NCBI GenBank assembly: GCA_018829965.1
Contig: JAHJTG010000008.1
Coordinates: 9,314-73,313 of the forward strand
DNA: 64,000 nt
Origin: Patescibacteria group bacterium
Lineage (GTDB): Bacteria; Patescibacteriota; Minisyncoccia; Minisyncoccales; Staskawiczbacteraceae
Direction: 5' to 3'
Shown here: positions 2,176-63,117 of the stretch, piece by piece
Layout of the letters: the number at the start of each line of letters is the position of its first letter
Position numbering within the stretch: the first letter of the stretch is position 1
The notes under the pieces: model-generated
What the model saw: only the letters and a program-made list of their open reading frames with translations
Databases searched by the model: none
What the model was told of the DNA's origin: nothing
Made by a program: the position numbers and the translations under genes

Positions 2176-2793
2176 ATGTTTTCACAGTTAAAATCATTTT
2201 TAGAAAGAATTGACTACCACAGAGATCGATTGCTTTTTCCATTCATCAGAAAGTTTTGGCCTCGATATATCTGGCCGAATCATATAACAATTCTAAGGAT
2301 TATTATATCTGTAGTAATTGTTTTCTTGTTGATATTCGGCTTCCGAGATAGATTATGGCTGCTTTCACTCTTTATCATAGGCGCTCTATTAGATATGGTA
2401 GACGGTTCTGTTGCGAGAGCATTAAAAAGAGAAACTAAAATCGGGGCATTGTTAGACTCAATGGCTGACAGAATGTTGCTTTTACCAATTGGCGTTTTTA
2501 TTTTATTTAAAAATTATGTCTGGTTACTTCTATTTCTAATGATACCGGAAATTATTACAGGAATAATGATTCTATATTGCAGAACTAAGAATAAAATTAT
2601 TACAGCCACTATTTTTGGGAAAACAAAAATGGTTATTGAGTGTGTAGCTTTATCTGTAATAATTCTTTTTGATTTTCCGGATACTCCTTCCAGTTTTCCA
2701 ATAATATTGCTTTATTTTGCCGTTGCATTCGCTTTTCTGAATGTAGTTTTGAATATTAAAGTTCTAAAAAGTAAAGATGCTCAATTTTTATAA
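2176..2793 (+). CDS. CDP-alcohol phosphatidyltransferase family protein
   Basis: D-G-x2-A-R-x8-G-x3-D-x3-D signature ([27 protein letters not shown]); polytopic membrane protein. Confidence 0.85.
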
Positions 2794-22214: not shown

Positions 22215-22307
22215 ACGGTTTGAACCCAGCTCACGTAACACTTTAATTGGCGAACAGCCAAACCCTTGGGAGCGGCTTCACCCCCAGGATGTGTTGAGCC
22301 GACATCG

Positions 22308-22592
22308 CTGTCGGTAATTTTTCTCTCCTTACAGAGAGGTTCGGACTATATCTTCACCCTTTCTCAATAAGAAAGGGGCTGGCGTGTTAGCTCTCCAATT
22401 TTTTGGAGAACTCCGACTATTAAAAGTCAAGTCTCTACAGGGTTATAACCCAATCTTTTTAAGAATTGAGTTAAACTTCCCACGGTATTATCGTTTAGTT
22501 TTACTAATTTTACCATATGAACTAAGTACGATTCCACCGTTATAAGCCAGATTTTTGGTATAGCATTACTGCTATAGCACCCCGATTTGTTA
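22308..22592 (-). mobile_element. ORF-less group I intron in 23S domain V (after ~U2500) with a homing-endonuclease-gene relic
   Basis: Exons rejoin as GUUCGGCACCU|CGAUGUCGGCUC. Keeps AAUACCGUGGGAAG, CCUGUAGAGACUUGAC, GAUAUAGUCC. Only an 18-codon remnant (MGSLTQFLKRLGYNPVET*) lies between them. Confidence 0.8.
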
Positions 22593-23209
22593 AGGTGCCG
22601 AACAGAGCCGTCGCTATGGACGCTCGGGCTCTACCAGCCTGTTATCCCCGGAGTAGCTTTTGGTTGATGATCTTTCGCGGTTCTAATAACCACGATCGGT
22701 TCACTAAGTTCTGGTTTCCCAACTGCGCGACATATCCGTCTTGCAGTAAAGCCGGCATTTGGCTTTGCCCTATCGCTCCGATTTCCATCCGGAGCTAGCC
22801 GACCTTATAAACGCCTCCATTACCTTTTAGGAGGCAAGTGCCCCACTTAAACTGCCCATTAAACACTGTCTCCGCCTAAGGCGGATTAGAATCAGGGTTT
22901 TTAAAGGATGGTGTTTCATCGGCGACTCCACCCTGTCCGAAAACAAGGTTTCAAAGTCTCCCATCTACGCTACGCATTAAAAACCAAAACTCAATATCTA
23001 ACTACAGTAAAGCTTCCGGGGTCTTTCCGTCTAGCCGCGATTAACCGGCATCTTCACCGGTATTGCATTTTCACCGGGCTCCTCGTTGAGACAGTTCTCT
23101 AGTCGTTAAGCCATTCATGCGGGCCGGAACTTACCCGGCAAGGGATTACGCTACCTTTGGACGGTTATAGTTACCGCCGACGTTCACTGGTGCTTCAATC
23201 AATGAGCCC

Positions 23210-23320
23210 CACTCCGCTCCTTACTTCGTAAGAGCTTCGAAGGGGCAGGTATTCTTTTTTTCAGAATACTTGTCCTGCGTAGCTTTTTTTACGAAACAAA
23301 AAGCGAAGTAGGACCCTCAA
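23210..23320 (-). repeat. 23S hairpin insertion 1 (domain IV, ~E. coli 1860 region)
   Basis: ~110 extra nt relative to E. coli, with nested hairpins (caggtattc-ttttttt-cagaatacttg). Confidence 0.6.
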
Positions 23321-23427
23321 CTTTAACATTCCAGCACTGGTCAGGCTTCACCCCCTATACATCCTCTTACGAGTTAGCAGAGAGCTGTGTTTTTGATAAA
23401 CAGTCGCTAGAGATACGTTAGCTGCGT

Positions 23428-23572
23428 CCCACCGCACCTCGCTATGCTCGGTACTACCGCGGATTAACACGGATTTTAACTGATTAACACGGATAAAATA
23501 TCCGTATGAATCCAGTCGTATCCGCATGTATCCGTGGTACCAAACGCAGTGAGGTACGGTAGGAAGGCCATA
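23428..23572 (-). repeat. 23S hairpin insertion 2 (variable helix ~E. coli 1730)
   Basis: Outer arms cctcgctatgctcgg / ccaaacgcagtgagg enclose CGGAT-rich modules (family I, also at 38245-38300). Confidence 0.7.
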
Positions 23573-24712
23573 TTGCGAACTTACGGCCGCTTTTTTGCCG
23601 AGTTCCTTAACGAGGAATCACCCGTTCATCTTGGCACACTTACGCCGACCCACCTGTGTCGGTTTACGGTACGGTTCCCATTTTTTTAACCCTACGAGCT
23701 TTTCTAGACAACGCGCTCATCCGAATCGCCAGTGCCGAAGCACCAACTTTTCTCATTCCTTAGATTACTCCTAAGAACAAGAACATAAATCCAATAATTT
23801 GCTCGGACTACTGTGTTGTGTCACTCTTCAGAAAAAAATGGAAGGGACGGAATATTAACCGTCTAACCATTAGGTACGCCTTTCGGCTTCCCCTTAGGAC
23901 CGCCTAACCCTTGGCTGATTGCCATTGCCAAGGAACCCTTGGGTTTTCGATGTCCCGGTATTTCACCGAGATTGCGGTTACTCATGCCAACATTCTCTCT
24001 TCTTAACGCTCCACCAGACCTCACAGTCTAGCTTCGCAGCGATAAGAATGCTCTCCTACCACGCATAAAAACCTGAGTTTCTATGCATCCATATCTTCGG
24101 TATTAAGCTTTAGTCCCGATGAATCTTCGGCGCACTTTGCCTATATAGGACAGTGAGTTGTTACACACTCTTTAAAAGATAGCTACCTCTAAGCTAACTT
24201 CCTGCCTGTAAAGGGCAAAATACTTCCTTAATCTACACTTAGCTTAATTTTGGGACCTTAGATGATGATCTGGACTGTTCTCCTTACGACCATGGAGCTT
24301 AGCCCCCACAGTCTAACTGCCTTTTTGACGATGCTGGTATTCGGAGTTTAATTAGAATATCTGAGCGAAGCCCAAGAAATTCTATTTAGTGCTCTACCCC
24401 CAGCACCTAAACAAAAGACGCTAGCCCTAAAGCTATGTCGGAGAGAACCAGCTATTACCAAGCTCGATTAGCTTATCACTTCTTACCACAGGTCATCCCA
24501 GAGTATTGCACGGCTCAAGGGTTCGGACCTCCCCCGCTCTTTCGAGAGGGTTCATCCTGCCCATGGCAAGCTCGCCTGGCTTCGGGTCTCAACCACTCAG
24601 CTTAATTGTTTGCGCTATTAACGCTCGCTTTCGCTATGCCTCCACCCCGTAAGGGTTTAGACTAGCTGAGTAACTGAACTCGTTGGCTCGTTCTGCAAAA
24701 AGCACGCCATCA

Positions 24713-24898
24713 CCAGCCACATCTCGCTGCGCTCGATGTGTCTGGAAACCCTAAATCCTAAATCCGAAATCCTAAACAATAACTAAAATCCAAAATCAAA
24801 AACTTATTTTAAATTTGAAATTTAGAATTTGGAATTTGTTTAGAGTTTCGTGTTTAGTGCTTAGAATTTCCGCATCGAACAAAGTGAGATGCGGCCAG
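24713..24898 (-). repeat. 23S hairpin insertion 3 (helix 25 region, ~E. coli 540)
   Basis: Outer arms catctcgctgcgctcgatg / catcgaacaaagtgagatg enclose inverted heptamer arrays of family C. Confidence 0.7.
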
Positions 24899-25286
24899 CT
24901 CTGACTCGTTGTAAGCAAATGGTTTCAGGTTCTATTTCATCGGGGTCGCCCCCCTACTTTTCACCTTTCCCTCACGGTACTGGTTCACTATCGGTAATAT
25001 TGAGTATTTAGCCTTGGCCGTATAGTTCGGCCTGATTCCTGCCAGGTTATCATTCCCGACAGTACTTAAGTAAAATAGCAAGGAGCGTAAAGTCGTTTTC
25101 GTCTACAGGACTATTACCTTCTATGGTCACCCTTTCCAGGGTTATTTGACTAACGAAAAATTTATTCTTGCAGAGCAAAAATAAATTTACACTTTACCAA
25201 AATGTTCTCCCTCGGATAGAATCCAGCACTCTTTAACGTTTCAAAAAGTACTGGATGCTCCCGACGCTAAATCCTTGCAACCCCAA

Positions 25287-25425
25287 TCGCTCGCGCCTCG
25301 CTATGCTCGTCGCTTCGCTCTCCTACCAATTACGAATTTTTTCGAATTACGAATATTCGTAATTAGTTTAAATTGGTAATTCGTAGGAAGAGTAAGTGCC
25401 GAACGCAGTAAGGCACGAACGAATG
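25287..25425 (-). repeat. 23S hairpin insertion 4 (domain I, ~E. coli 270 region)
   Basis: Outer arms gcctcgctatgctcg / cgaacgcagtaaggc enclose ACGAAT modules of family B. Confidence 0.7.
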
Positions 25426-25471
25426 GTTTGGGCTCTTCCCTTTTCGCTCGCCACTACTAAGGGAATAACTG

Positions 25472-25747
25472 GTCCTACATCTCACAAATTCCGCTAAATT
25501 TAGAAACGAAATAATGCGCTAAATTCAAGACGCGATGACGAAACGCATAAGTGAAACGATGCGTTGAGGAAGAGCCTCGCAGAAGTTAGCCATTATTTCG
25601 CTTCCCTTTCGGGCGGGCGAATTCTGGACATATTCTTTGTTGCTCGTCGCTCACGTATCGCGTTGCTTATACGCTGTCGCTCCTCGCGTCGCGAATCTGT
25701 CGCAGAATTCGCTTCGCTAAATTAGTGCAATTTGTGAGATGCAGGAC
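25472..25747 (-). repeat. 23S insertion 5: 276-nt element with 19-bp terminal inverted repeats (domain I, ~E. coli 215)
   Basis: gtcctacatctcacaaatt ... aatttgtgagatgcaggac (18/19 complementary), with an internal gcgaattctg/cagaattcgc hairpin. No ORF and no group I core. Confidence 0.75.
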
Positions 25748-26333
25748 ATTTGTTCTCTTTTCCTCTGGGTACTGTGATGTTTCGCTTCCCCAGGTCTACC
25801 CCTAACCTTGCGGTCAGGTAATCCCGTTCTGCGGGATTGGGTTGCCCCATTCAGAAACCTCCGGATCAAAGGTTGCTAGCCACCTCCCCGAAGCTTATCG
25901 CAGGCACGCCACGTCTTTCATCGCCTCAATATTCCAAGGCATCCACCATTTGCCTATAAAATTATTTTCTTTGCGTAAGTTTATTCAACAATATAAATAC
26001 TGCTGAATGAATAGATACAGATTTTAGATATCTATTACTATTATATTTTTAGATGATTCTTTACTCTGTTAAAAAAAGACCCCTGTCTAAAGTTTAACAG
26101 AGTGGCCTAATTATATCTTTTTAAAAAAAGCAAGATTATAATTAGGGTTGTATTTTCAAAGTTCTTGATAAATATACTATTCTTAAAAAATTAAAAACCG
26201 CCTAGTTAAAGCGGTCCATCAGACATATACCCGCCTGCATCGCCTGTGGCGAAAGCCACTGCGGGCAGGCAAAAACTCGGAGTTTAACCGCTTCTTTTTC
26301 TAAAAATGGTTTTAATATTTATCATGTAAGGTT

Positions 26334-28965: not shown

Positions 28966-29060
28966 AAAGCTATCGAGAATCTTCGATTTCTTTCAGAAAT
29001 CGGGACAAATGTCCCGATGGCTGTTGCCATCGCGGATGCTCGATTTTGCTCGGCAAAATC
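28966..29060. repeat. Family A module cluster (GTCCCGAT / TCGAGnATCnTCGA words)
   Basis: atcgagaatcttcgat, tttctttcagaaatcgggac, gtcccgatggctgttgccatcg, cgattttgctcggcaaaatcg: concatenated small hairpins. Confidence 0.75.
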
Positions 29061-29092
29061 GGCAAGGTGTTCTACCACTAAACTAAAGCCCC
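29061..29092 (-). pseudogene. Orphan tRNA 5' half (acceptor strand, U8, D arm, start of anticodon stem)
   Basis: GGGGCUU-UA-GUUU-AGUGGUA-GAAC-A-CCUUG then runs straight into family A repeats. No matching 3' half (CAAGG... AAGCCCC) before tRNA-Ala. Confidence 0.5.
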
Positions 29093-29093
29093 C

Positions 29094-29423
29094 CTAATTT
29101 ATCCCCCAGAATTTTATTATTTGGACATCATCTAACCCCCAAATTCTCATTAGAATAAAATCCTTGAAATCGCTTATAATTATACCCATACTCAAAAAAA
29201 TCAAAACGTATCCAACATATTTTCTGCTTTTTTTAAAAAACAAATAAGATAAACTGATAAATAACAATAACAACCCAAATATCCAATGATGCGGAATCCA
29301 TATTATCTGCCCCCCAATGATATGCCCTATTCTCCCGATAGCATATCCCATAAACACTGCGAAGGTATATATAAAATATTTTATAGACATTATTGCTCTT
29401 AATAATATCTTACCTTTTTCCAA
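29094..29423 (-). CDS. Small membrane protein
   Basis: Three predicted TM helices; 109 aa. Confidence 0.5.
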   Translation of the reverse strand: MEKGKILLRAIMSIKYFIYTFAVFMGYAIGRIGHIIGGQIIWIPHHWIFGLLLLFISLSYLFFKKSRKYVGYVLIFLSMGIIISDFKDFILMRIWGLDDVQIIKFWGIN

Positions 29424-29483
29424 TAGTTTTTCAAGCCAGCAGGCGCAGGATTGCCAAGCACTAATCTACGGATAGTGCTCGGC

Positions 29484-29698: not shown

Positions 29699-30477
29699 CA
29701 TGCTATTCCCCTATATCGCTATAAGGCATGGACTATATCATCATCCTTTCACAAAATATTTTTGACTTTACTGGATGGTAAGAATTTACAATTTTAGCAA
29801 ATCTCTCGTGATGTTTAGTAGAAACAAATATTCTCCAATAATCAGGGTCAACTTTTTTACTCGGATTATGGATTTTTCCAGTTTCTATCTTTAAACTTTT
29901 GAGAAGTAACTTTAATTGCTTGATTTTGCTTAAATCCTTTTGGACTAACTGAATATAAAATCTGTCTTTTGTATGAGGAACGCCACCTTCGGCGTCAAAA
30001 AATCCTTTTACATAAAACAATTTTTCATAATAGTTATCCAAATTTATAGGATTAAATTTGAAATCTAAGTCTTTACAAAGTGTCTCTAAAACATACATAT
30101 TTCTATCCTTTCCCTCTTTGTAAATCCATGATTTGCAATTAATTTTACCTAGCAAAATTTGTAAATTTTCCAACCACTGCTTATTTTTCTGGGAGAATCT
30201 AATTCTCTTTCCTTTGTTTAAAGAGGCATCATGAATCGCTCCATTTAAATAAGCTATAATCTCATATTTTGTGGTAGGAGTTCGGCGTGTAGTCTCTGAG
30301 GGGTCAATTCTAATTTTATTAGAACGACTTCCCTGCTGATTGTCTGCACTAGAAACATTTTCACTCATATTATCTTATTATAATATGAGTAGTCCTAGAT
30401 TCACAGATGTTCCAGCATACAGCCAACTTTTTCTCTAAGGGTTACCCCTATGAGGTCGCAACATGCAGATTGCACTG
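29699..30477 (-). mobile_element. Group I intron in 16S after U1498 (decoding centre, inside the 1492R primer site)
   Basis: Exons rejoin as GGGGCUAAGUCGU|AACAAGGCACGG. ACAAUCAGCAGGGAAG and CCCCUCAGAGACUAC lie 5' of most of the ORF; GAUAUAGUCC lies 3' of it. Confidence 0.85.
29733..30368 (-). CDS. LAGLIDADG homing endonuclease (double-motif)
   Basis: IIAYLNGAIHDAS and VKGFFDAEGGV motifs. The tracked N-terminus reads through intron core elements, so the true start is uncertain. Confidence 0.8.
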   Translation of the reverse strand: MSENVSSADNQQGSRSNKIRIDPSETTRRTPTTKYEIIAYLNGAIHDASLNKGKRIRFSQKNKQWLENLQILLGKINCKSWIYKEGKDRNMYVLETLCKDLDFKFNPINLDNYYEKLFYVKGFFDAEGGVPHTKDRFYIQLVQKDLSKIKQLKLLLKSLKIETGKIHNPSKKVDPDYWRIFVSTKHHERFAKIVNSYHPVKSKIFCERMMI

Positions 30478-30893
30478 ACGACTTAGCCCCTCTTATTAAG
30501 CCCAGCGTAGGATCCCGTAAACGGGACACTTCGGCTGTTCCTAACTCGCTTGGCTTGACGGGCGGTGAGTACAAGACTCAGGAACATATTCATCGCCGCA
30601 TAGCTGATCGGCGATTACTAGCGATTCCAACTTCATGAGGGCGGGTTTCAGCCCTCAATCCGAACTAAGACCGATTTTGGTGGGATTTGCTTCACCTTGC
30701 GGTTTTGCGTCCCATTGTCTCGGCCATTGTACCACGTGTGCGGCCCAAGTCATCAAAGGGCCATGCTGATTTGGCGTCATCCTCGCCTTCCTCCCAGTTG
30801 TCCCGGGCAGTCCCCTATGACATATAAAACATAGGGCAAGGGTTGCGCTCGTTACCCGAATTAACGGTACGTCTCAAGACACGAGCTGACGAC

Positions 30894-31713
30894 CATATTG
30901 ATCTATAATTTCTTATAGTATGGACTATACCATCTTCCATCCGCCTGAGGCGGATTAGGAGACCAGCGTTTAATGATAGGTTATATCATTAAGTTTTCTC
31001 GCCTTTAGAGAAAACTAAGTCTCTACGGGGTATAAAAACTAATTTTTGTAATTTTATCGAATAATTATAAATTTTTTCTAAAAATTCTCTTGCCTGGTAT
31101 CGCGAGATATAAAGGCAAAATGTCTTTGCTGTTTTGTAGTAATAAATTTTTGTATTACTAATTCCTATCCTTAAAAGAAGACTTTTATCAATTTCTGCTT
31201 CATTTTTATTTCCATATACTATCCTGCAATCATTTCTAAAGTTCTTATCGATTGAACCGTCTCCATCAAACCTTCCTGCAAAATATGCATTAATTAAATT
31301 ATCTTTTTCTAATTTAATTAAATTATTTCGTGCCTCTCTAAATTCTCTCAGGAATGGACGGCTATTAACAAAAATATGATTTCTATTAAATTTTATCCTA
31401 TCTTCAGAAAAAAACTTCAATAGAAAATCTTTAAACTTGGCTATCAAAGCAGGGTCTACATTACTTAGACCAATCGAACTTGACCACCAATAACTATCTG
31501 CACACCAAAGTCCTAAGATATAAGAATCTTCTTCTCTAGAGAAAAAATTACAAAAATTAGTTTTTATACTTCCCACGGTATTGCCATTAATTATTATATT
31601 TTAACATAATAATTAGAAGGTTTCACCGTTATGAGCTGGTTTTTTACCGTATTAAAATAAATTAGTACGGGGCATTTCACTAAAAATTACTTTTTAGTGG
31701 GTCGTTATAACAC
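30894..31713 (-). mobile_element. Group I intron in 16S helix 34 (after ~U1060)
   Basis: Exons rejoin as GGUGCUGCAUGGUU|GUCGUCAGCUCGUG. Core elements AAUACCGUGGGAAG, CCCCGUAGAGACUUAG, GGUAUAGUCC. Confidence 0.85.
30989..31576 (-). CDS. LAGLIDADG homing endonuclease (double-motif); GTG start
   Basis: YILGLWCADSYWW and AYFAGRFDGDGSI motifs; 195 aa. Confidence 0.85.
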   Translation of the reverse strand: MGSIKTNFCNFFSREEDSYILGLWCADSYWWSSSIGLSNVDPALIAKFKDFLLKFFSEDRIKFNRNHIFVNSRPFLREFREARNNLIKLEKDNLINAYFAGRFDGDGSIDKNFRNDCRIVYGNKNEAEIDKSLLLRIGISNTKIYYYKTAKTFCLYISRYQAREFLEKIYNYSIKLQKLVFIPRRDLVFSKGEKT

Positions 31714-31981
31714 AACCATGCAGCACCTGTTCTGCTGCCTTGTGGGGGGCCATCCTTTCAGACGGCTTTCAACAGAATTTCTAGACTTGGTAAGGTTCTT
31801 CGTTTGTTGTCGAATTAAGCCACATGGTCCACCGCTTGTGTGAGTCCCCGTCTATTTCTTTGAGTTTTAGCCTTGCGGCCGTACTTCCCAGGCGGATCAC
31901 TTAACGCATTAGCTTCGCCACTGACAGGGTCGACACTGCCAATAGCCAGTGATCATCGTTTACAGCGTGGACTACAAGGGT

Positions 31982-32961
31982 CATCTTGTAGTTTTTTCTT
32001 ATTTCTTCGATTACTCGAAGGATCGGACTATATCATTTTCTGAAGTTTTTCCATTTGTTTTTCTTTTCAGTAATATATTTTTCTACTACTGCTTTAGAAA
32101 AACCTGTCAATTCACTAACTTCAGAAATCCAGCGTTGTTGTAAATCATGGTCTTTGTAAATAATCAAGACCTTCGGTAGCATTTCTGCCACTTTTATATG
32201 CGGCATTATAATCCGCAAAAACTTCTTTAACTCTTCGCTTGAGCGAATCCATAAACGATAATATATTCTTTCTTCATTCATCCATTTTCTAGTTATTTTA
32301 CCAATATGAACATTTATGTCCCATACTTTTTTTAAGTAATTAGACAATAATTTTTGCTCTTCATAAGAAAAACAATCTGTACAAAATACTCCCTTCCTTC
32401 CATTACCTATTATAGATCCATCATCAAGCCACCATATCGCTAAAGATAAAGGAGTTATTGCATTAAGCCACTTACGGCTAATTTTAAATACTCCTTTTTT
32501 ATGAGTTAAATCATATAACTCTGTTAATTCTGGTATTGCTACGCTTTGATATCGCAATTTTTGACCGCCAAATCCATCTTTTATTTCTGATTTCCAAAAA
32601 TAGTTTTCCCCGGAAATTTCCTTTAATTCATTTACTTTCCAGAAAAAATATTCCTTTTGCTTGATAGAATGACGGAAAGAAAAACGAGCATTTTTATAAT
32701 TATCGTTAATCTTCAGCGATCCATCGCCTAGCAAAGAACCAAGAATAATATCTTTGCAATTTTTAGACAAAAATGAATTTTTCATTTTCTATCTTTTTGA
32801 CTTACATAGTCTCTACGGGGTCGCTATCTTAAAAAGACGCGACTTCCCTCGGGATTATCCATCCGACTAAAATGGGTTTCCCCGATACAGCTAGATGCTC
32901 ACCATATTGTCACCAATATGGAGGACACCATTTAGTCTGTTAATTTCACAGACAAGGATTT
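31982..32961 (-). mobile_element. Group I intron in the 16S 790 loop (after U793, inside the 806R primer site)
   Basis: Exons rejoin as GGAUUAGAU|ACCCUUGUAGUCCACGC. AAUCCCGAGGGAAG and CCCCGUAGAGACUAUG precede the ORF; GAUAUAGUCC follows it. Confidence 0.85.
32033..32785 (-). CDS. LAGLIDADG homing endonuclease (double-motif, with C-terminal helical extension)
   Basis: IILGSLLGDGSL and LAIWWLDDGSI motifs; 250 aa. Confidence 0.9.
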   Translation of the reverse strand: MKNSFLSKNCKDIILGSLLGDGSLKINDNYKNARFSFRHSIKQKEYFFWKVNELKEISGENYFWKSEIKDGFGGQKLRYQSVAIPELTELYDLTHKKGVFKISRKWLNAITPLSLAIWWLDDGSIIGNGRKGVFCTDCFSYEEQKLLSNYLKKVWDINVHIGKITRKWMNEERIYYRLWIRSSEELKKFLRIIMPHIKVAEMLPKVLIIYKDHDLQQRWISEVSELTGFSKAVVEKYITEKKNKWKNFRK

Positions 32962-33239
32962 ATCTAATCCTTTTTGATCCCCACGCTTTCATTCCTCAGT
33001 GTCAGAATCGTCCCAGCTAACTGCCTTCGCTTTTGGTGTTCCCGACGATATCAACGGATTTCACCCCTACACCGTCGGTTCCGTTAGCCTCTAACGTCCT
33101 CTAGTCAAATAGTATCTTTAGCAATTCAAAGGTTAAGCCGATGAGTTTTAACTAAAGACTTATTTAACCACCTACGAATCCTTTATGCCCAGTAAATCCG
33201 GGTAACGCTCGGGGGTTCTGTATTACCGCTCCTGCTGGC

Positions 33240-34072
33240 CGAATAACGAAAAATTATTCGTTTTGGACTATATCATCACCTCGCTTCAGCGAGGGTTCGG
33301 CGTCTGATGATGGGTTCAAATACCACCATCTCATCCACTTAAGGATTCAGTCTCTGAGGGGTTAAAGCACAATAAGGTAATCTTTTTGAAAAACACGAAA
33401 TAATATTCGGAGAGATCAAATTTAAAAATTTATCTCTTCCTTTTGCCCCGATATATATTTCAGGATATCTTTTGCCTCTGCAAAGAGGCGTATGAATATT
33501 GGATTCTATTCCGAAGTTTTTCTTTAAAACCTCAACCAATAATTTATTCTCTTCGACGCTAAATGCATTTGTGCAAAAAGAAAAATTATAATGGTCTTTC
33601 GGTCTGAAATCTAAACTTCCATCGTCCATATACCATACAGCTAAACTTAATGGAGAAATTAATAACTCCTGAATGTTTTTTGGAACAATTTTCTTTCCAT
33701 TTTTATAAAATATTTCTTTGTATCTAGAGATATCTTCTAAAAATTTCGTTTGAAAATACCATTGCTTATTATCTTTCCTCTGTTTTGGCGAACTTTTGCA
33801 TAAATTTTCAAAGCAAGAATATAACCAGAATACATATTCTTTATGTGCTTCTGATTGTTTTATTCTCAAGCATTTTCCATCTATCCAAGCATCGCCCAAA
33901 AGAGTGCCGATAATAATTTCGTGTTGTTTCTTTGTCATTACCTAATTATACTCAACTTCCCTGCTGATTGTCACATTAAAATTATCAACTTTGTGATAAA
34001 GGAGCATTAATGTGCTTTCCAGCATATAAGCCGAATTTTGATTCTGCGCCCGCCAACCTTCATGGGTTGGCC
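33240..34072 (-). mobile_element. Group I intron in the 16S 530 loop (after U516, inside the 515F primer site)
   Basis: Exons rejoin as CCUAAUUCUGU|GCCAGCAGGAGCGGUAAUAC. Core elements ACAAUCAGCAGGGAAG, CCCCUCAGAGACUGAAUCC, GAUAUAGUCC. Confidence 0.85.
33339..33938 (-). CDS. LAGLIDADG homing endonuclease (double-motif)
   Basis: IIIGTLLGDAWI and LAVWYMDDGSL motifs; 199 aa. Confidence 0.9.
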   Translation of the reverse strand: MTKKQHEIIIGTLLGDAWIDGKCLRIKQSEAHKEYVFWLYSCFENLCKSSPKQRKDNKQWYFQTKFLEDISRYKEIFYKNGKKIVPKNIQELLISPLSLAVWYMDDGSLDFRPKDHYNFSFCTNAFSVEENKLLVEVLKKNFGIESNIHTPLCRGKRYPEIYIGAKGRDKFLNLISPNIISCFSKRLPYCALTPQRLNP

Positions 34073-34371
34073 ACAGAATTAGGACCCCCTTATTCCTTCG
34101 GTACTGTCAGTCGCCAAAGGCGACTTCCTCCCGAAGAAAAGAACTTTACACTCCGAAGAGTTTCTTCATTCACGTAACGTCGCTCCATCAGGCTTTCGCC
34201 CATTGTGGAAGATTCTCGACTGCAGCCTCCCGTAGGAGTATGGCCCGTGTCGCAGTGCCATTGTTGGGGAACACGCTCTCACGCCCCCTACCCGTCATAG
34301 TCTTGGTAGGCCGTTACCCTGCCAACTAACTGATAGGCCGCAGGCCCATCTCAAAGTGGATTGCTCCTTTA

Positions 34372-34498
34372 CTCCTCCTTCGCTCTTCATTCCATTCAGA
34401 GCTACGACGGACGAGCCTTGCTTTACGCTTGCAAAGTATAAATACCTTGCGGCTTTGTCCATCTGAAGCTTTTTATGAAATAAAAAGCGAAAGAGGAG
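34372..34498 (-). repeat. 16S hairpin insertion (~E. coli 190-220 region)
   Basis: ~125 extra nt bounded by ctcctccttcgc / gcgaaagaggag inverted arms; no ORF. Confidence 0.65.
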
Positions 34499-34952
34499 AC
34501 TATCGGAAATTAGCCAATCTTTCGACTGGTTATGTCCGTCTTTGAGGTTGGTACCTACGTGTTACTAACCCGTTCGCCACTGACCCTTGCGGGTCCGTTT
34601 GACTTGCATGCCTTATCCACGTTACCAGCGTTCACCCTGAGCTAGAATCAAACTCTCAAAAAATTGAAGTTTGATTTAAAAGAAAATAAATTCTCTTTTG
34701 AATCTAGTTACAATGTGATAGCTTTATTCGAAACAACTTTAAAAAACTAATTATTTATCCAGTTTAAATAGGTTATTTTAAACTGGGGTGCATTATTAAT
34801 TTATCAATGTACGGGGTATTTGTTTTGAAAAACAAATCCCGAAGATATCCATCTTTACTTAAAGATAAATATCTTCGGGGTTCATTCAACCATTTTAAAT
34901 TTTAATTCTCCATCAATTTATATTTTTTATTTATTTTTTATATGCAATTACT

Positions 34953-36726: not shown

Positions 36727-36737
36727 ATTTTAATTGA

Positions 36738-36843
36738 ACGCGATACTAATCTACGAATAACATACCAATTATACGAATAACTTATAGTGAGTTTATTGAA
36801 CCATTTGTATTATTGGTATGCGAATTAGTATCATTGGTATCGC
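36738..36843. repeat. 106-nt structured repeat (copy 1 of 2) filling the rpmE-rpsB spacer
   Basis: ~80% identical to 51380-51486. Imperfect long inverted arms gcgatactaatctacgaataacataccaat / attggtatgcgaattagtatcattggtatcgc. Confidence 0.85.
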
Positions 36844-37056
36844 TTATTTTTTCTTTTTCTTAGCCATTCTGTCTTTAAACTTCTGCACCTGACCTAAGGT
36901 ATCAATAACCTTTTCCTTGCCGGTATAGAAAGGATGACAGTTAGCACAAATTTCTGTCTCAATAAACTCTTTAGTTGAGCCAATATTAAAAGAAGCGCCA
37001 CAGGCACAAGTGGCTTTTGTTTTCGGATAATAAATAGGATGTATATTTTTCTTCAT
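36844..37056 (-). CDS. rpmE: 50S ribosomal protein L31
   Basis: [10 protein letters not shown]...C.CG...CHPFYTGK; start moved to Met71 of the tracked ORF. The upstream part is repeat DNA. Confidence 0.9.
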
Positions 37057-37067
37057 ATTTGTATATT

Positions 37068-37235
37068 TTGTCCCGATTTTCGGTCTGCCGAAAATCGAGA
37101 ATCCTCGATTTATTTTTAATTTAAAAAATAAACCGGGAGATGAATGTCTTTCTTCATGTTTCCTACGAATTACGAATATTTTCGAATTACGAATTCGTAA
37201 CATTACATAAAATTCGTAAATTTGAATTATGTTTA
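37068..37235. repeat. Family A plus family B modules in the rpmE-prfA divergent spacer
   Basis: gtcccgattttcggtctgccgaaaatcgagaatcctcgat, then cctacgaattacgaatattttcgaattacgaattcgtaa. Confidence 0.75.
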
Positions 37236-37290: not shown

Positions 37291-38133
37291 ATGAACGAAG
37301 AAATTATAAAAAGCGGGGGGCTAGGAAAAAGTCCCACTTCGCCTGATGGCTTCGCGGGACAACAATCACAGCAAGCTGTAATTGTTGAAATCCGGGCAGG
37401 AACTGGCGGAGACGAAGCTAGCTTATTTGCTAGGGATTTGTTTCGTATGTACTCAAGATTCAGCCAAAATCAAGGATGGAGCCAGAAGATTTTAGATTCT
37501 AGTTTAAACGATTTAGGCGGGTATAAAGAAATCATTTTTGAGTTATCAGGTCCCAATGTCTATGAAAGTATGAAATATGAAGGTGGAGTACATCGCGTCC
37601 AAAGAATTCCCAAAACAGAAAAGCAAGGCAGGGTTCATACATCAACAACAACCGTAGCGGTTTTAAAAAAGCCAAAGAAAACAGAAATTAATATCAGCCC
37701 AAGCGATTTAAAAATTACTACTTACAAAGCTTCTGGTCCTGGAGGACAATATGTTAACAAAACAGAGTCAGCTATAAGAATCGTTCATATTCCAACAGGA
37801 CTTGTGGTTACTTCTCAATCTGAAAGGAACCAACTCCAAAATAAAGAAAGCGCTATGACTATTTTAGCAGCAAGATTACTGGAAAAAAAACAAAAAGAAG
37901 AACAATTGCAGATTACAGGAGCGCGACGCGAACAAATCGGTTGGGCAAAAAGAGCTGAGAAGATGAGAACATATAACTTCCCTCAAGATAGGATAACAGA
38001 CCATAGAATAAATAAGTCTTGGCATAATTTAGAAAATATATTAAATGGAAATTTAGAACCGATCATAAAAGCATTTAAAAAGACAAATCCTGGTCCCGAT
38101 GCCGCAAACGGCGGCATCGAGGATCCTCGATAA
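37291..38133 (+). CDS. prfA: Peptide chain release factor 1 lacking most of domain 1
   Basis: RAGTGGDEA, tripeptide PKT (PxT) in [37 protein letters not shown]. Only ~34 aa precede RAGTGG, against ~105 in E. coli RF1. Confidence 0.85.
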
Positions 38134-38300
38134 CTCCGATTGCGTCGTGAGTCCACGACTTTGTCGGGACTTCGTTATCGGGACACGATATAGAAAGTAT
38201 AATGGACGGCAAAATGGAAGGAATCGTCAAGGCGTTCAAAAAAGCGGAAACCGCAGATTAATACGGATTTATAGCGGATTTATAGCGGATTTACACAGAT
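38093..38300. repeat. Family A modules, then CGGAT tandem units (family I), spanning the prfA 3' end
   Basis: ggtcccgatgccgcaaacggcggcatcgaggatcctcgat...gtcgggac...atcgggac; cggatttatagcggatttatagcggattt. Confidence 0.75.
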
Positions 38301-51379: not shown

Positions 51380-51486
51380 AACGCGATACTAATCTACGAA
51401 TAACATACCAATTATACGAATAATTTATGGTGAACTTATCGAAACATTAGTATCATTGGTATGCGAATTAGTATTATTGGTATCGC
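51380..51486. repeat. 106-nt structured repeat (copy 2 of 2) filling the grx-gap spacer
   Basis: Matches 36738-36843; ends 3 nt from the gap ATG. Confidence 0.85.
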
Positions 51487-51490
51487 TTTT

Positions 51491-51730
51491 TTACTCTATT
51501 ATTTTTAATAACTCATTAATTCTTTTTTTATCAAACCCAACTATAAATTCTCCATTAATATCTATAACAGGCACTGACATTTGTTCGGACTTTTCAATCA
51601 TCTCATTTAGAGCCTGTTCGTCCAAGCTTACATCAATATATTCAAAAGAAATATTATGGCTTTTTAAATATTCTTTTAATGTAACGCAATAGACGCAGCT
51701 TGGAGTGGAAAAAATTCTTACCTTTGGCAT
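51491..51730 (-). CDS. Glutaredoxin/NrdH-like thioredoxin-fold protein
   Basis: 79 aa; CVYC redox motif near the N-terminus; ..VP...I.G..I.G. Confidence 0.75.
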   Translation of the reverse strand: MPKVRIFSTPSCVYCVTLKEYLKSHNISFEYIDVSLDEQALNEMIEKSEQMSVPVIDINGEFIVGFDKKRINELLKIIE

Positions 51731-53779: not shown

Positions 53780-53971
53780 AAGTGAGGCAACAAGTTCAAA
53801 AGTAAATTTCGCAGGCAATTTAACATGGTGTCGCCTTAGGCGACTAAATTGCCGAGAATTTAGATAGCAAAACCTCGTCCCGATTTCTGAAAGAAATCGA
53901 GGATGCTCGATTGTTATACAATCGGCACTGGGAATTTTGACTATCGGTATTTTTAAACTTATTGTCGAGCG
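53780..53971. repeat. Family E plus family A composite element in the eno-gpmA spacer
   Basis: gttcaaaagtaaatttcgcaggcaattt...aaattgccgaga; cgtcccgatttctgaaagaaatcgaggatgctcgattgttatacaatcg; ends in tgtcgagcg. Confidence 0.8.
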
Positions 53972-55345
53972 TTAATGCCGAGCGATATCTTCTTCAATCT
54001 CCAACAACCTGTTATATTTTACCATTCTTTCCGGAGTTATAGGAGCTCCAGCTTTAATAAATTCTGCCCCTATTCCAACCGCCAAATCTGCGATAAAATC
54101 ATCCGTTGTTTCTCCCGACCTATGGGCAACGAGGATTTTCCAATCAGCTGCTCTTGCTAATTTCACCGCTTCTAAGGTTTCCGTAACCGTGCCTATTTGG
54201 TTTGGTTTTAGGATAAGACCATTGCAAGCTAACTTTGCCTGTGCTTCTTTAATTCTTTTGATATTAGTAGTCAAAAGGTCGTCGCCGAATATAATTATTT
54301 TATCAGATAATTCTTTAGTAATTTCTTCAAATCCCTGCCAATCATCTTCTGCAAATGCATCTTCAATAAAAATAATTGGAAATTTATCAATTAAATCTTT
54401 GTAGAAACCTAGTAATTCGCTCCTATTTAATTCTTGATTTTCAATCTTATATCTCCCATCTTGGTAAAATTGAGATACTGCGGCATCTAAGCCGATCTTA
54501 GTATCAGGATGCTTTTCTATGGCGCTTTTTATTAGATAGAGCGCTTGCTCTGTTTTTGAAACTTGGGGAGCAAAACCTTTCTCATCCCCTATTTTTAAAT
54601 TATTTTTACCAAAGTTCTTAATTAATATTTCTTTTAAACTTTGGAATATCTCGCTGCCAACTCTAAAATTATCTCTAAAATTTTGCTTTTGAGGGATTAC
54701 CATAAACTCCTGTATGTCTAAACTACCATCCGTCCCGACTTTGTCGAGTCCCGACTTTGTCGAGGATCCTCGATTTAATCGGGAGATCCTCAACGGCTCT
54801 ACCATCGGGACATGCGCTCCTCCTTCAATAATATTAAAACAGGGTTTAGGCAGATTTAGCGGGTTTCTTAAACCCGCTAGCTGAGCTATATATTTATAAA
54901 GAGGCAGATTTTGGTCAGTAGCTAACGCCCTACATGCTGCCACAGAAACCGGCAAAATCGCGTTTACTCCCAGCCGTGATTTATTTTCCGTTCCATCAAG
55001 TTTTATTAAAAAGTCATCAACCTCTCTTTGATTAGAAAATTCTTTATCTTTTAGGGCTGGAGCGACAATTTTCTTAATATTACTTATCGCTTTCTTCACC
55101 CCTTTCCCGTCTTCATCTCTTAATTCTAGGGCTTCGTATTTTCCTTTTGATTTCCCTGAAGGAACTGATGCTAAAAAATTGCCGTTATTTGTCCCGACTC
55201 TGTTGAGTCCCGACTTTGTCGAGGATCCTCGATGAAATCGGGAGATCCTCGATGGTTTTACCATCGGGATTTCTAATTCAACTTCAATAGTCGGATTCCC
55301 ACGCGAGTCCAAAATCTCTCTTGGTATTATATTTCTAATCTTCAT
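53972..55345 (-). CDS. eno: Enolase with two in-frame copies of a family A repeat
   Basis: EILDSRGNPT, SVPSGKSKG, LDGTENKS, DIQEFM, IEDAFAEDDW, GDDL..TN, LKPNQIGT.TE, SHRSGET. Confidence 0.95.
   Translation of the reverse strand: MKIRNIIPREILDSRGNPTIEVELEIPMVKPSRISRFHRGSSTKSGLNRVGTNNGNFLASVPSGKSKGKYEALELRDEDGKGVKKAISNIKKIVAPALKDKEFSNQREVDDFLIKLDGTENKSRLGVNAILPVSVAACRALATDQNLPLYKYIAQLAGLRNPLNLPKPCFNIIEGGAHVPMVEPLRISRLNRGSSTKSGLDKVGTDGSLDIQEFMVIPQKQNFRDNFRVGSEIFQSLKEILIKNFGKNNLKIGDEKGFAPQVSKTEQALYLIKSAIEKHPDTKIGLDAAVSQFYQDGRYKIENQELNRSELLGFYKDLIDKFPIIFIEDAFAEDDWQGFEEITKELSDKIIIFGDDLLTTNIKRIKEAQAKLACNGLILKPNQIGTVTETLEAVKLARAADWKILVAHRSGETTDDFIADLAVGIGAEFIKAGAPITPERMVKYNRLLEIEEDIARH
54732..54811. 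repeat. Family A element inside eno (copy encoding ...VPMVEPLRISRLNRGSSTKSGLDKVGT...)
   Basis: gtcccgactttgtcgagtcccgactttgtcgaggatcctcgatttaatcgggagatcctcaacggctctaccatcgggac. Confidence 0.9.
55191..55269. repeat. Family A element inside eno (copy encoding ...PMVKPSRISRFHRGSSTKSGLNRVGT...)
   Basis: gtcccgactctgttgagtcccgactttgtcgaggatcctcgatgaaatcgggagatcctcgatggttttaccatcggga; ~90% identical to 54732-54811, same orientation. Confidence 0.9.
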
Positions 55346-57537: not shown

Positions 57538-57601
57538 TATTAATTAATTAATAGTAATTCTATTATTTTACTAAATTTTCAATCATTACGCAAAATTATC
57601 T

Positions 57602-57671
57602 CCTGCCCGCAATGTTTCGCCCGCCAGAAACGCTGTATTTACTGCGGGCTGGCATAGCGATGCAGGCGGGC
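57602..57671. repeat. Family D GC-rich element (CCCGCCAG...GCGGGCTGG)
   Basis: cctgcccgcaatgtttcgcccgccagaaacgctgtatttactgcgggctggcatagcgatgcaggcgggc; homologous to the ftsZ-internal copy at 61793-61865. Confidence 0.8.
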
Positions 57672-57790
57672 TGAAAGGCAAAAATCGCTTAGAGGCGATT
57701 TTTATCTTAAGCCATTAGACCTGTTGCTTAATAATTTTCGCAACGAAAATTATTAAGCAACAGATCTATTATACTAACTGTATTATTTCT

Positions 57791-61585: not shown

Positions 61586-63117
61586 ATTCTTCTTAAAAAA
61601 GCTGGGATTTCCCATTCAGCTTCCTGATTTATTCTTTTATTCTCTTCCAACTCTTGAGCTGTTTTAACTTCTAAAGCGTTTCTTCTAATCATTCCTTTTT
61701 TATCTTCTGTCTTGTCAGTTGAAGACGAAACCACTATTGGGACTGATGTTTTTATAACTGGCGCGTGAAATGATTGTTTTTTTATTTTCTTCCCCGCCTG
61801 CAACTCTTTGCCCGCCAGCAACGCTTTGCGTAGCGATGCGGGCTGGCGTAGCAATGCGGGTAGGTTTTTTTCTATTTTCATTTTAATCTTTTTCTTAGGG
61901 ACTTTCTTCTTTTCTTCTTTTTTTACAATAATAGGTTTCTTTATCTCAACAGGCTCTGGCGTAGGAGCAAATGATGGACCAGTAATTAAAAGCGTTGTTT
62001 TAATTTTATTTTTTGATTTTGTATTTTTGGAAATGCCAAAAATTATTTTTGCTTTAGGGTTTAAAATAGATATGCTTTTGCTAATTTTTTCAACTTCTAT
62101 CATGCCAAGATTCTTTCCGCCCGAGATATTAAATAACATTTTTTCCGCTTTTATATTACTGTTATATAAAGGGTTATTAAGGATATTTTGTACTACTTCT
62201 TCTGCTCTATTTTTACCAGTAGCTTCAGCGCTGTTCAAAAATGCCATCATTCCCCTGCCTTTTAATATTGTTCTTACATCGGCAAAATCAATATTAATTA
62301 ACCCGGGGTTATAAATTAAATCAATTAAACTTTCTAAAGATTCTATAAGATTTTTATTCACTAATGAAAAAGCTTCTGTAATAGAAGTTTTCTCGCCGAT
62401 AATTTTAAAAATTCTTTCGTTAGGAATTACGATTAAAGCGTTCAAACATTCTCTTATATCCCGAACAGATTTTGAACTAATTTTTGATTTTTTCTTACCT
62501 TCAAAACGAAATGGCAAGGTAAAGATTCCCAAAGTAACATTACCCAATTTTTGGCTCAACTCGGCAAAAACAGGAGTAGCGCCAGAGCCCAGCCCTCCAC
62601 CCAAAGACGAAACAAGAATAATAATATCTTGACCCTCTAAGAGTTTTGTAATTTTTTCTTTTTCTTTTTCGGCTGCTTGGCGCGCTAATTCTGGATTCAT
62701 TCCAGTTCCCAAGCCGTGAGTTACATCTTTACCAAAATAAAAATATTTAATTCCAGGTTTTTTCCCTATTGCCCTTATATCAGTATCGGCAATTACAAAA
62801 CTGGCTTTTTCTAAAGACCTGCCGATTTCAGAAACAATTGACCCTCCACCACCACCAACTCCAATAACTCTTATTTTGGGCCTAAAAATTGCGTTAGCAG
62901 ATAAATCAAACTTTTGAGGTTTGTGAAAAACCATTTTTTGTTTATCCGTCCGTAACCCAGAGGCGAAGGAGGGTTTTTTTATCTTTACTGCCCTTCTCAC
63001 CTTCACCTTCTTTGCTTTTTTCACAATCTTAACTCTCTTTGCCCTTTTTGCCTTTTTAACTCTTCTTATCTTTTTAGCCCTTTTTATCTTTTTTATGTAA
63101 GTTTTCTTTTTTTTCAT
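61570..63117 (-). CDS. ftsZ: Cell division protein FtsZ with Lys-rich N-terminal extension and long repeat-containing C-terminal linker
   Basis: GVGGGGGS, GGLGSGATP (tubulin signature GGGTGSG variant), NERIF/LIN.DFADV blocks; ~80-aa KKAKR-rich N-terminus. Confidence 0.9.
   Translation of the reverse strand: MKKKKTYIKKIKRAKKIRRVKKAKRAKRVKIVKKAKKVKVRRAVKIKKPSFASGLRTDKQKMVFHKPQKFDLSANAIFRPKIRVIGVGGGGGSIVSEIGRSLEKASFVIADTDIRAIGKKPGIKYFYFGKDVTHGLGTGMNPELARQAAEKEKEKITKLLEGQDIIILVSSLGGGLGSGATPVFAELSQKLGNVTLGIFTLPFRFEGKKKSKISSKSVRDIRECLNALIVIPNERIFKIIGEKTSITEAFSLVNKNLIESLESLIDLIYNPGLINIDFADVRTILKGRGMMAFLNSAEATGKNRAEEVVQNILNNPLYNSNIKAEKMLFNISGGKNLGMIEVEKISKSISILNPKAKIIFGISKNTKSKNKIKTTLLITGPSFAPTPEPVEIKKPIIVKKEEKKKVPKKKIKMKIEKNLPALLRQPASLRKALLAGKELQAGKKIKKQSFHAPVIKTSVPIVVSSSTDKTEDKKGMIRRNALEVKTAQELEENKRINQEAEWEIPAFLRRMKPEH
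61793..61865. repeat. Family D GC-rich element inside the ftsZ linker
   Basis: cccgcctgcaactctttgcccgccagcaacgctttgcgtagcgatgcgggctggcgtagcaatgcgggtagg; translated as LPALLRQPASLRKALLAGKELQAGK. Confidence 0.85.

Follow-up and report, generated by a model that had tools for sequence, protein, structure and literature searches.

The enolase gene of a Patescibacteria group bacterium carries two 78-nt inserts that are probably copies of a small non-coding insertional element, mobile or formerly mobile, for which we use the name double-hairpin palindromic element. The gene lies in a stretch of 64,000 nt of contig JAHJTG010000008.1 (hereafter the window, analysed at its full length), which has a low GC content (35%) and belongs to a genome of the candidate phyla radiation (CPR) type. 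The inserts are members of a dispersed family with a covarying two-hairpin structure, precise filled and empty sites among relatives, nesting of one unit in another, in-frame occurrence in many protein genes and recurrence at the same bond. Mobility would account for the spread of the family and, judging from the reading frame and the conserved residues, the inserts are likely to be translated within an enzyme that would have retained its activity.

Two nested copies in the enolase gene

The predicted product of the host gene has the same sequence as the NCBI record 'enolase [Patescibacteria group bacterium]'; its identity as an enolase is borne out by the Pfam domains (PF03952 and PF00113, Enolase_N and Enolase_C), by the catalytic columns and by the core of an AlphaFold (AF2) model. 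Enolases of the PDB match it at E~1e-103 (phmmer), and the catalytic and metal-binding residues are all conserved, with S63, H178, E213, E255, D287, E328, D355, K380 and K431 among the invariant columns. The alignments to solved enolases, E. coli 1e9i among them, are interrupted exactly at both inserts, in agreement with the initial annotation, which had noted that the E. coli enzyme has no residues at these points; relative to the human gamma-enolase chain, query residues 25-52 stand opposite residues 25-26 and query residues 180-207 opposite residues 160-161. In-silico removal of both inserts leaves a 1218-nt open reading frame (ORF) of 405 aa that reads EVELE/TNNGNF and GGAH/ADGSLDIQEFM across the two junctions and is collinear, with one gap column, with the 406-aa relative P0005.

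Comparison with relatives set the limits of both inserts, and their parts were delimited by parsing the sequence into the family skeleton (described below) and with a covariance model (CM) of the half-unit; the features of the gene are as follows.

53972-55345, minus strand: enolase gene, 457 aa, host of both inserts (ORF, Pfam and PDB matches)
54733-54810, minus strand: copy A, at site 2, 78 nt, encoding VPMVEPLRISRLNRGSSTKSGLDKVG between the catalytic His178 (GGAH) and ADGSLDIQEFM
54785-54810, minus strand: left part of the outer 42-nt unit of copy A, TCCCGATGGTAGAGCCGTTGAGGATC (skeleton parse; CM match at 54787-54810, E=2e-4)
54749-54784, minus strand: inner 36-nt unit of copy A, TCCCGATTAAATCGAGGATCCTCGACAAAGTCGGGA, nested at GGATC^C of the outer unit (skeleton parse and CM)
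54733-54748, minus strand: right part of the outer unit of copy A, CTCGACAAAGTCGGGA (skeleton parse)
55192-55269, minus strand: copy B, at site 1, 78 nt, encoding IPMVKPSRISRFHRGSSTKSGLNRVG in the beta-hairpin turn between EVELE and TNNGNF
55208-55243, minus strand: inner 36-nt unit of copy B, nested in its outer unit (skeleton parse and CM)
55244-55269 and 55192-55207, minus strand: the two parts of the outer unit of copy B (skeleton parse)

Site 2 lies directly after the catalytic His of the mobile loop L2 (yeast His159), and site 1 in a beta-hairpin turn some ten residues ahead of loop L1 (SGxSxG). Copy A was inserted at CATG^CG, and its removal restores GGAHADGSLDIQEFM; copy B, ten residues ahead of the SGxSxG loop, was inserted at GAAA^CA, and its removal restores EVELETNNGNF. 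The half-unit CM matches the inserts at E values from 1e-11 to 2e-4, with matches to the inner unit of copy A at 54767-54784 (E=5e-6) and 54749-54766 (E=2e-4) and to copy B at 55246-55269 (E=1e-11), 55226-55243 and 55208-55225. On the sense strand copy B reads TCCCGATGGTaaaACCATCGAGGATC, TCCCGATttcATCGAGGATCCTCGACaaaGTCGGGA and CTCAACagaGTCGGGA in succession, that is, a 36-nt minimal unit placed at GGATC^C, the centre of a 42-nt unit. The initial annotation had located both stretches correctly and had described a palindromic repeat; the exact elements occupy 78 nt each at the coordinates listed, and the family is indeed a dispersed palindromic one, while each insert is a nested composite of two units rather than a simple palindrome.

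The two copies are identical at 70 of 78 positions (90%, eight differences), lie in the same orientation and codon phase and have an exact 26-mer in common (none expected in 100 shuffles), so that the near-identity reported initially is upheld. A repeat search of the window grouped them as family D4, and the enolase gene outside them is non-repetitive. Their GC content is 53-54%, as against 36% in the remainder of the gene. Both enter a codon after its first base within the minus-strand ORF and are open in its frame, as had been proposed, giving the same-frame peptides (I)PMVKPSRISRFHRGSSTKSGLNRVG and (V)PMVEPLRISRLNRGSSTKSGLDKVG, which can be written jointly as ...PMV(E/K)P(L/S)RISR(LN/FH)RGSSTKSGL(DK/NR)VG; each adds 26 residues to the predicted protein. 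The peptides predicted at or near the insert junctions include ISRFHR, GSSTK, SGLNR and VGTNNGNFLASVPSGK, with the junction segment ...SGLNRVGTNNGNFLASVPSGK.

In the AF2 model the core is confident (mean predicted local distance difference test (pLDDT) score 90, predicted template-modelling score 0.89), whereas the model assigns no structure to the inserts (residues 26-52 and 179-205), where most pLDDT values are under 60 (<50-60). Such disordered, low-confidence segments agree with flexible loops; the suggestion of the initial annotation that the peptide forms a surface loop is not proven by the model.

Several additional signals in the gene were considered. A weak CM match at 54113-54135, taken as a candidate third copy, is a chance resemblance of the conserved HRSGET motif. 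An 8-nt direct repeat (sense GATGGTAG) occurs at 54799-54806, in arm 1 of copy A, and at 54722-54729, 2 nt downstream of the element; its spacing of 76 nt is not a multiple of three, and the repeat is therefore probably due to chance. Searching the concatenated 54-aa insert peptide against an index of 5.8 billion proteins gave no candidate, and a HMMER search with two 30-aa insert segments, a profile too short to inform, returned one unrelated tandem-repeat protein.

Structure, distribution and insertion sites of the family

Members of the family have three words in common in a fixed order, TCCCGAY, RTCGAGGATCCTCGAY and RTCGGGA, and the complete skeleton can be written (G)TCC-CGAY-(arm 1)-RTCG-A-GGA/TCC-T-CGAY-(arm 2)-RTCG-GGA(C), with the slash at its centre. 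This 30-nt skeleton is its own reverse complement and forms two adjacent bulged hairpins, each with a 3-bp foot, one bulged base, a CGAY/RTCG stem and a variable, self-complementary arm; the two single-base bulges are the only conserved unpaired bases. Both enolase inserts contain the three words and two self-complementary arms, and parse into a 42-nt outer and a 36-nt inner unit. Units range from 36 to 100 nt. The skeleton is stop-free in all six frames, and its peptides are rich in Gly, Ser, Arg, Pro and Asp (RGSS, IEDPR or SRILD).

The arms are unrelated between copies (157 of 194 unique; median fold z -3.2) and yet remain paired: pairing reaches 72-91% at arm positions 1-5, where each of the four Watson-Crick pair types occurs, and the pairs closing the arms are T-A in 105 cases, C-G in 26, A-T in 6 and T-G in 7, against 9 mismatches, the first three types making up about 90%. 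The TCC/TGC word of the centre always covaries with the 3' GGA/GCA, the TGC variant being paired with GCA in 15 of 15 cases. In 27 equal-length half-units (alignment A6) 97.8% of the cells pair and 5 of 10 pairs show compensatory double changes, a covariation score reached by none of 500 shuffles. Every copy in the window gives the two expected bulged hairpins when folded (z from -3.8 to -6.2; copy A -3.8 and copy B -4.8). Rfam, searched at gathering and E-value thresholds with the window and ten loci rich in canonical copies, returned only tRNA, rRNA and noise.

Over the 64 kb, the half-unit CM at E<0.01 matched 28980-29064, 37071-37101, 38094-38123, 53878-53927 and the two enolase inserts, and nothing else; it yielded 13 significant half-units, all at seven family loci. 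The members outside enolase, none of them assigned a strand, are the following.

53878-53927: canonical 50-nt member of the TGC/GCA variant, 45 nt downstream of the enolase stop (CM E=3e-10 and 9e-8)
38094-38183: 90-nt member with a partial unit nested in arm 2 (fold z=-6.2; CM E=5e-8)
37071-37138: 68-nt member, degenerate at its 3' end and located upstream of the release-factor gene (fold z=-4.3; CM E=7e-3)
28972-29064: complete unit at 29012-29064 (TGC/GCA variant) and half unit at 28972-29005 (fold z=-5.6; CM E=1e-5 to 7e-4)

The first of these folds as two bulged hairpins with z=-5.3. The four places had been described initially as non-coding DNA containing the same words; all are family members by the CM, and the one at 38094-38183 is partly coding, its first 40 nt (38094-38133) encoding the final 13 residues and the stop of the release-factor ORF 37291-38133. 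That gene is short (280 aa; its PCRF match begins at profile position 96) and has a GC-rich segment near the N-terminus (37308-37365). The member at 28972-29064 occupies the 16S-23S spacer, where it has tRNA-Ala on one side and on the other an orphan tRNA 5' half (GGGGGCTTTAGTTTAGTGGTAGAACACCT...; 29062-29095, minus strand) found where tRNA-Ile is expected in a 16S-tRNA-23S spacer; the order there is the orphan 5' half, directly followed by the family elements, then the intact tRNA-Ala. Other genomes, Bacteroidota included, show the same succession (L076, L115, L117, L078, L091, L135 and L139): first a 5' fragment of a tRNA, which often duplicates the tRNA that follows, then an element within or behind the D-loop, and last an intact tRNA.

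Scanning one genome per species for the pattern TCCCGATN{5,35}TCGAGRATSCTCGA yielded at least 118 loci. Among the matches listed, 73 loci have Patescibacteria-type record titles, covering Yanofsky-, Sung-, Magasanik-, Azam-, Adler-, Lipton-, Kerfeld- and Shapirobacteria and Paceibacterota, with many labelled Saccharibacteria; a further 17 belong to unclassified or low-GC 'Proteobacteria'-labelled metagenome-assembled genomes (MAGs), 13 to Bacteroidota (Draconibacterium, Prolixibacteraceae, Bacteroidales) and about 15, probably by chance, to high-GC genomes. The Bacteroidota members (L010, L034, L036, L041, L054, L055, L060, L062, L076, L087, L096, L107 and L115) are often attached to tRNA-like fragments. 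The presence of the skeleton in Bacteroidota MAGs would imply horizontal spread or a very old origin. Viral contigs gave only two matches, and the element is therefore not phage-borne.

The nesting seen in enolase is not peculiar to it. A metagenome scan for the nesting junction found 18 loci with an outer/inner arrangement like that of enolase or with arrays of left and right halves, (L)n(R)n. One locus (L137) is an in-frame nested copy whose peptide is nearly the same as that of the enolase inserts, and another (L133) is an in-frame nested copy in a different reading frame. The arrays, (TCCCGAT..ATCGAGGATC)n (TCGAC..GTCGGGAC)n at L123, L124 and L132, look like the products that repeated insertion into the element centre would give. 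The un-nested state also exists: the relative P0002 carries only a 42-nt unit at site 2.

Comparison with the closest enolases resolved filled and empty states of site 2. In 36 of the 120 closest enolases more than six residues separate the catalytic His from the Leu-Asp of LDIQEF, five being the common insert-free form, and eight of the 120 have extra residues at site 1. Twenty-four of the 36 longer site-2 inserts could be assigned to a type, and the nearest neighbours of almost all are insert-free. Site 2 is empty in P0003, with the DNA 'cat aca gaa'; P0002 and P0069 carry a canonical unit at cat G^C; and P0066 has a different, three-way hairpin element at site 2 together with a canonical unit, which has another unit nested in it, at a third site. 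In P0050 the DNA reads cat G-TCCCGACCGCtttGCGGTCGAGGATCCTCGGTGGCgatGCCACCGGGA-C aaa, with a 48-nt insert (TCCCGA...CCGGGA). Two proteins 92-93% identical to it, P0106 and P0058, lack the insert and read GGAHAKNDLDVQEF (GGAH-AKND), and removing the 48 nt from P0050 therefore restores His-Ala-Lys-Asn. Site-2 inserts of non-canonical type are likewise GC-rich hairpin elements, belonging to other families. The empty sites that the initial annotation had hoped to see in relatives thus exist, in P0003 at the DNA level and in P0106 and P0058 at the protein level, and inserts conserved in all related enolases without any likeness to non-coding DNA, which it had held would contradict its reading, are not what we find: relatives are empty and members lie between genes. 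Target-site duplications, sought alongside, were seen neither in the flanks of 129 canonical elements nor in the filled/empty pairs.

The flanks of these 129 elements are biased to G at -1 (62%) and C at +1 (63%), with T/A at -2 and A/T at +2. Filled/empty comparisons restore the host codons exactly and show the flanking G and C to be host-derived, and we accordingly interpret the bias as a target preference of the (T)G^C(A) type. Precise insertion at CATG^C recurs in different lineages, and site 2 is a hot spot because the His-Ala codons CAT GCN offer the target and the loop tolerates extra residues. A second recurrent hot spot of this kind is a loop in the C-terminal domain of Mur ligases, in which genes from three MAGs (L002, L049 and L127) carry elements in different frames (RGSS, IEDPR and RESSTKSG).

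Read-through in protein genes and the weighing of explanations

Enolase is one of many hosts. Among the matches listed from the unbiased scan, long ORFs run across 17 of 76 canonical elements; in 15 of these 17 the length is a multiple of three, and the intragenic elements are shorter than the others (median 54 versus 62 nt, p=0.009). Host genes by Pfam include PolX, UvrA, SecA, LeuRS, PBP2, a class-I aminoacyl-tRNA synthetase, GyrA, Mur ligase, GalT and PrmC, and all three frames of the central palindrome are in use, giving RGSS, IEDPR or SRILD. Where at least 80 open codons lie on both sides, all 10-11 intragenic elements are read through in frame, and no gene was found split in such a way that only deletion of the element would heal it. 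In-frame read-through is what translation predicts, whereas removal at the RNA level would impose no such constraint. With members both between genes and in frame within them, the likeness to Rickettsia palindromic elements (RPEs) suggested by the initial annotation holds as regards behaviour.

In the mechanism that we propose, a single strand of either polarity would fold into two adjacent hairpins, and units would enter DNA as discrete, precise blocks without target-site duplication, favouring a (T)G^C(A)-like bond. They would also enter the GGATC^C centre of existing units, giving rise to nested composites; the 78-nt enolase element would accordingly represent a 36-nt unit inside a 42-nt unit, a composite subsequently copied whole between two enolase sites 459 nt apart. 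Because the skeleton is stop-free and its peptides are rich in Gly, Ser, Arg, Pro and Asp, short copies of a multiple of three could survive in essential genes at permissive loops and be translated there. In enolase this would have produced two flexible loops of 26 residues, one in the turn of the N-terminal beta-hairpin and one immediately behind the catalytic His of L2. The insertional unit may be recognised through the hairpin feet, and our guess at the mobiliser is a nuclease or transposase that recognises hairpins or cruciforms and acts symmetrically, given that element and target alike have two-fold symmetry; this symmetry, the symmetric target and the lack of duplication would suit a dimeric enzyme working on a cruciform or on either single strand.

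Several points weigh against an insertional origin of this kind or against its details. No transposase or mobilising gene came to light: about 1 Mb of sequence contained four widely spaced lone half-unit pairs, none of which flanks a transposase-like ORF, and no autonomous parent is known. The arms differ completely between copies of one genome, unlike those of recently amplified MITEs (miniature transposable elements with inverted repeats), and copy-and-paste from a master copy does not explain such differences. Arms born as palindromes, by nested insertion or snap-back synthesis, could mimic covariation without selection for structure, and conservation of the skeleton across classes of Patescibacteria and in Bacteroidota could indicate that it serves the host. 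That the inserts are translated and the enzyme active are predictions, harm might be expected from an insert placed directly behind the catalytic His in a mobile loop of the active site, and the empty alleles P0106 and P0058 were compared as proteins only.

The service to the host just mentioned leads to an explanation that we consider unlikely, namely that the inserts are a structured motif useful to the host, at which a conserved host protein would bind or carry out processing, with copies kept for that function. Proposed roles would be in termination or mRNA stability, in nucleoid or cruciform binding, or as a DNA-uptake or recombination signal, the intragenic copies acting at the RNA or DNA level. 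The 30-nt skeleton is kept across very distant lineages while its arms drift with compensation, many copies lie just downstream of genes (the one at 53878-53927, 45 nt past the enolase stop, is an example), and two changes in arm 1 of copy A yield G-U wobble pairs on the sense RNA, all of which would fit such a motif. Precise presence and absence at shallow divergence, however, is insertional behaviour rather than the evolution of a motif by point mutation, and the same is indicated by nesting in other copies and by landing in many unrelated coding sequences in all three frames. Furthermore, G-U and A-C mismatches on the sense strand of intragenic copies (30 versus 20) reveal no clear bias to the RNA strand. 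Being selfish would not preclude an element from having been co-opted for a function.

It is improbable that the inserts are absent from the mature protein, whether through intron-like removal from the mRNA or through ribosome skipping of the type seen in yeast mitochondria and in the bypass of T4 gene 60. Very stable hairpins do lie inside the mRNA, CPR bacteria excise insertions from their rRNA and the 16S and 23S genes of the window carry large insertions, and some family members stand inside tRNA-like sequences. Against this, both enolase copies and 15 of the 17 intragenic copies have lengths that are multiples of three and are stop-free, a constraint needed only if they are translated; no split gene is healed by removal alone; and the family has neither conserved unpaired nucleotides that could form a ribozyme core nor an Rfam match. 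The copies embedded in tRNAs lie in truncated or degenerate tRNA copies, and intron-like insertion in tRNA was rejected when in-silico deletion of 164 elements restored only one degenerate pseudo-tRNA and no sound tRNA. A self-splicing intron, a ribozyme and an intein were likewise rejected as identities of the inserts (no Rfam match, no conserved core, and 26 aa far below intein size).

Ordinary loop evolution, in which local duplication or slippage lengthened the loops and the resemblance elsewhere is compositional, has a very small probability. Both sites are indeed of variable length in the enolase clade (extra residues in 36 of 120 at site 2 and 8 of 120 at site 1). This explanation is already contradicted by the scan, the GC content and identity, and the CM results: the inserts are 90% identical in DNA despite their unrelated positions in the gene, their skeleton is found in intergenic DNA of the window and at more than 100 loci of other genomes, their GC content (53-54%) departs from the 36% of the rest of the gene, and the remaining inserts at site 2 are hairpin elements too, GC-rich and from other families. 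An artefact of assembly or binning that joined repeat sequence into the gene, conceivable for a metagenome-assembled source in that repeats are prone to mis-assembly, has a negligible probability: two contigs and several sources yield the identical 457-aa protein, the insert-bearing P0050 is on eight contigs, and the inserts are exactly in frame where independent assemblies of relatives carry related elements.

Beyond the preferred reading of the enolase inserts as copies of an insertional element, we put forward, tentatively and as less likely than that reading, a more general proposal: that one double-hairpin family is active across Patescibacteria and extends to Bacteroidota, inserting with two-fold symmetry and without target-site duplication at (T)G^C(A) and at its own centre, and that together with several sister families present in the window it keeps adding loops, on a major scale, to essential proteins of CPR bacteria, catalytic loops like L2 of enolase included. 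If this were true, a sizeable part of the CPR-specific variation in protein length would be transposon-made. For protein evolution, the finding means that reduced CPR genomes would be remodelled by tiny palindromic elements written into their proteins, a second, independent and much broader case of what had passed for a peculiarity of Rickettsia. For annotation, it would explain unusual loops of low complexity and tails at the C-terminus of CPR proteins, and it marks sites, such as the bond after the enolase catalytic His, that accommodate 14-27 extra residues, which bears on structural tolerance. With regard to mobile DNA, so compact a substrate (a 30-nt skeleton, a symmetric target and no duplication) makes the hunt for a new hairpin- or cruciform-specific insertion enzyme feasible, and in practice the skeleton can serve as a marker of CPR contigs and for presence/absence typing of populations.

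Other repeats and features were recorded in the window. A second family, a GC-rich three-way hairpin (TTCACCCCGTTAGAAGT-hairpin-hairpin-ACTTCTAACGGGGTAA), lies at 3808-3876, in frame in the CysRS ORF 2777-4207, where it encodes 24 residues, and its skeleton resembles the site-2 element of P0066 (L122). A third GC-rich family, D3, of about 40 nt (..CCGAAGCCCGTAGGCGAAGG..), occurs at 9473-9512, 10670-10709, 62936-62975 and also 29416-29455; its in-frame hosts are a Mur ligase, an aminotransferase of the DegT type and FtsZ, in the last case in an extension at the N-terminus. A further GC-rich palindromic repeat, of the CCCGCCAGC...GCTGGCGGG type, is present at 61793-61866 and 57599-57697, one copy being in frame within the C-terminal linker of FtsZ and the other intergenic. 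The 16S rRNA gene (30456-34663) measures about 4.2 kb, in two Rfam pieces with ORFs between them, and the 23S gene (22161-25969) 3.8 kb against a 2.9-kb model; such large insertions in both are typical of CPR genomes. A 121-nt direct repeat, 89% identical, at 36737-36857 and 51380-51500, lies just upstream of two genes on the minus strand; it has no relation to the hairpin family and may represent a common leader or promoter.

Comparison with known palindromic and hairpin elements

The skeleton sequence appears in no paper of the literature searched, and the CPR papers found by that search contain no RPE, MITE or REP (repetitive extragenic palindromic) terms. The family was compared with described systems by their properties. 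The GC clusters and the 'byp' translational-bypass elements of yeast mitochondria are short, GC-rich, palindromic mobile inserts in protein genes of AT-rich genomes. Whereas byp inserts break the frame and are skipped by the ribosome, the enolase inserts keep the frame and are stop-free.

REP sequences and the bacterial interspersed mosaic elements (BIMEs) built on them are mobilised by RAYT, a transposase of the Y1/HUH type; they are short, imperfect palindromes, often in inverted pairs, that insert without target-site duplication and are targets for further insertions. The double-hairpin family resembles them in that the hairpin rather than the whole sequence is conserved, in its inverted pairs, in the lack of target-site duplication and in being itself a target of later insertions. 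It differs from the REP classes (PMC3733652) in location, 17 of 76 elements being inside ORFs rather than extragenic, and in that the GTAG or CGTC tag is found in neither the skeleton nor the flank consensus. MITEs, which sometimes form in-frame fusions (PMC10969869), are likewise small, non-coding and dispersed, and the terminal inverted repeats TCCCGAY/RTCGGGA of the family correspond to theirs. The family differs from MITEs in having no target-site duplication. MITEs derive from an identifiable insertion sequence with the same ends; in about 1 Mb none was seen between lone half-unit pairs.

Closer in architecture are the double-hairpin elements (DHEs) in the mitochondria of chytrid fungi and fission yeast, which are GC-rich, made of two adjacent hairpins, potentially mobile and conserved across species (PMC10085805). 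Both systems combine a double-hairpin fold with high GC content in an AT-rich genome (53-54% against 35% in the window). The mitochondrial DHEs occur between genes and inside rRNA genes and, compared by description, are organellar and few per genome, with nearly identical copies; the bacterial family, in contrast, has variable arms, frequent in-frame insertions in protein genes and nesting.

The closest counterpart in behaviour is the RPE, a class of dispersed palindromic repeats inserted in frame in unrelated housekeeping genes and thought to be translated at positions compatible with the fold of the protein (PMC10969869). A reduced, AT-rich genome, dispersed palindromes and in-frame insertion in unrelated protein genes are common to both. 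By size, hosts and frames the inserts nevertheless fall outside the RPEs as these are described: RPEs measure about 100-150 bp, are confined to Rickettsia and have a conserved peptide in each family, whereas the double-hairpin units measure 36-100 nt, combine a 30-nt skeleton with free arms, are read in three frames, nest in one another and occur in Patescibacteria and Bacteroidota; a relationship in sequence between the two is not expected. Taken together, the family is best read as an undescribed, RPE-like mobile double-hairpin element that is probably translated, to judge by its frames, and what sets it apart from the RPEs is a distinct, structurally defined element with a phylum-wide distribution, self-nesting and a recurrent target bond next to a catalytic residue.

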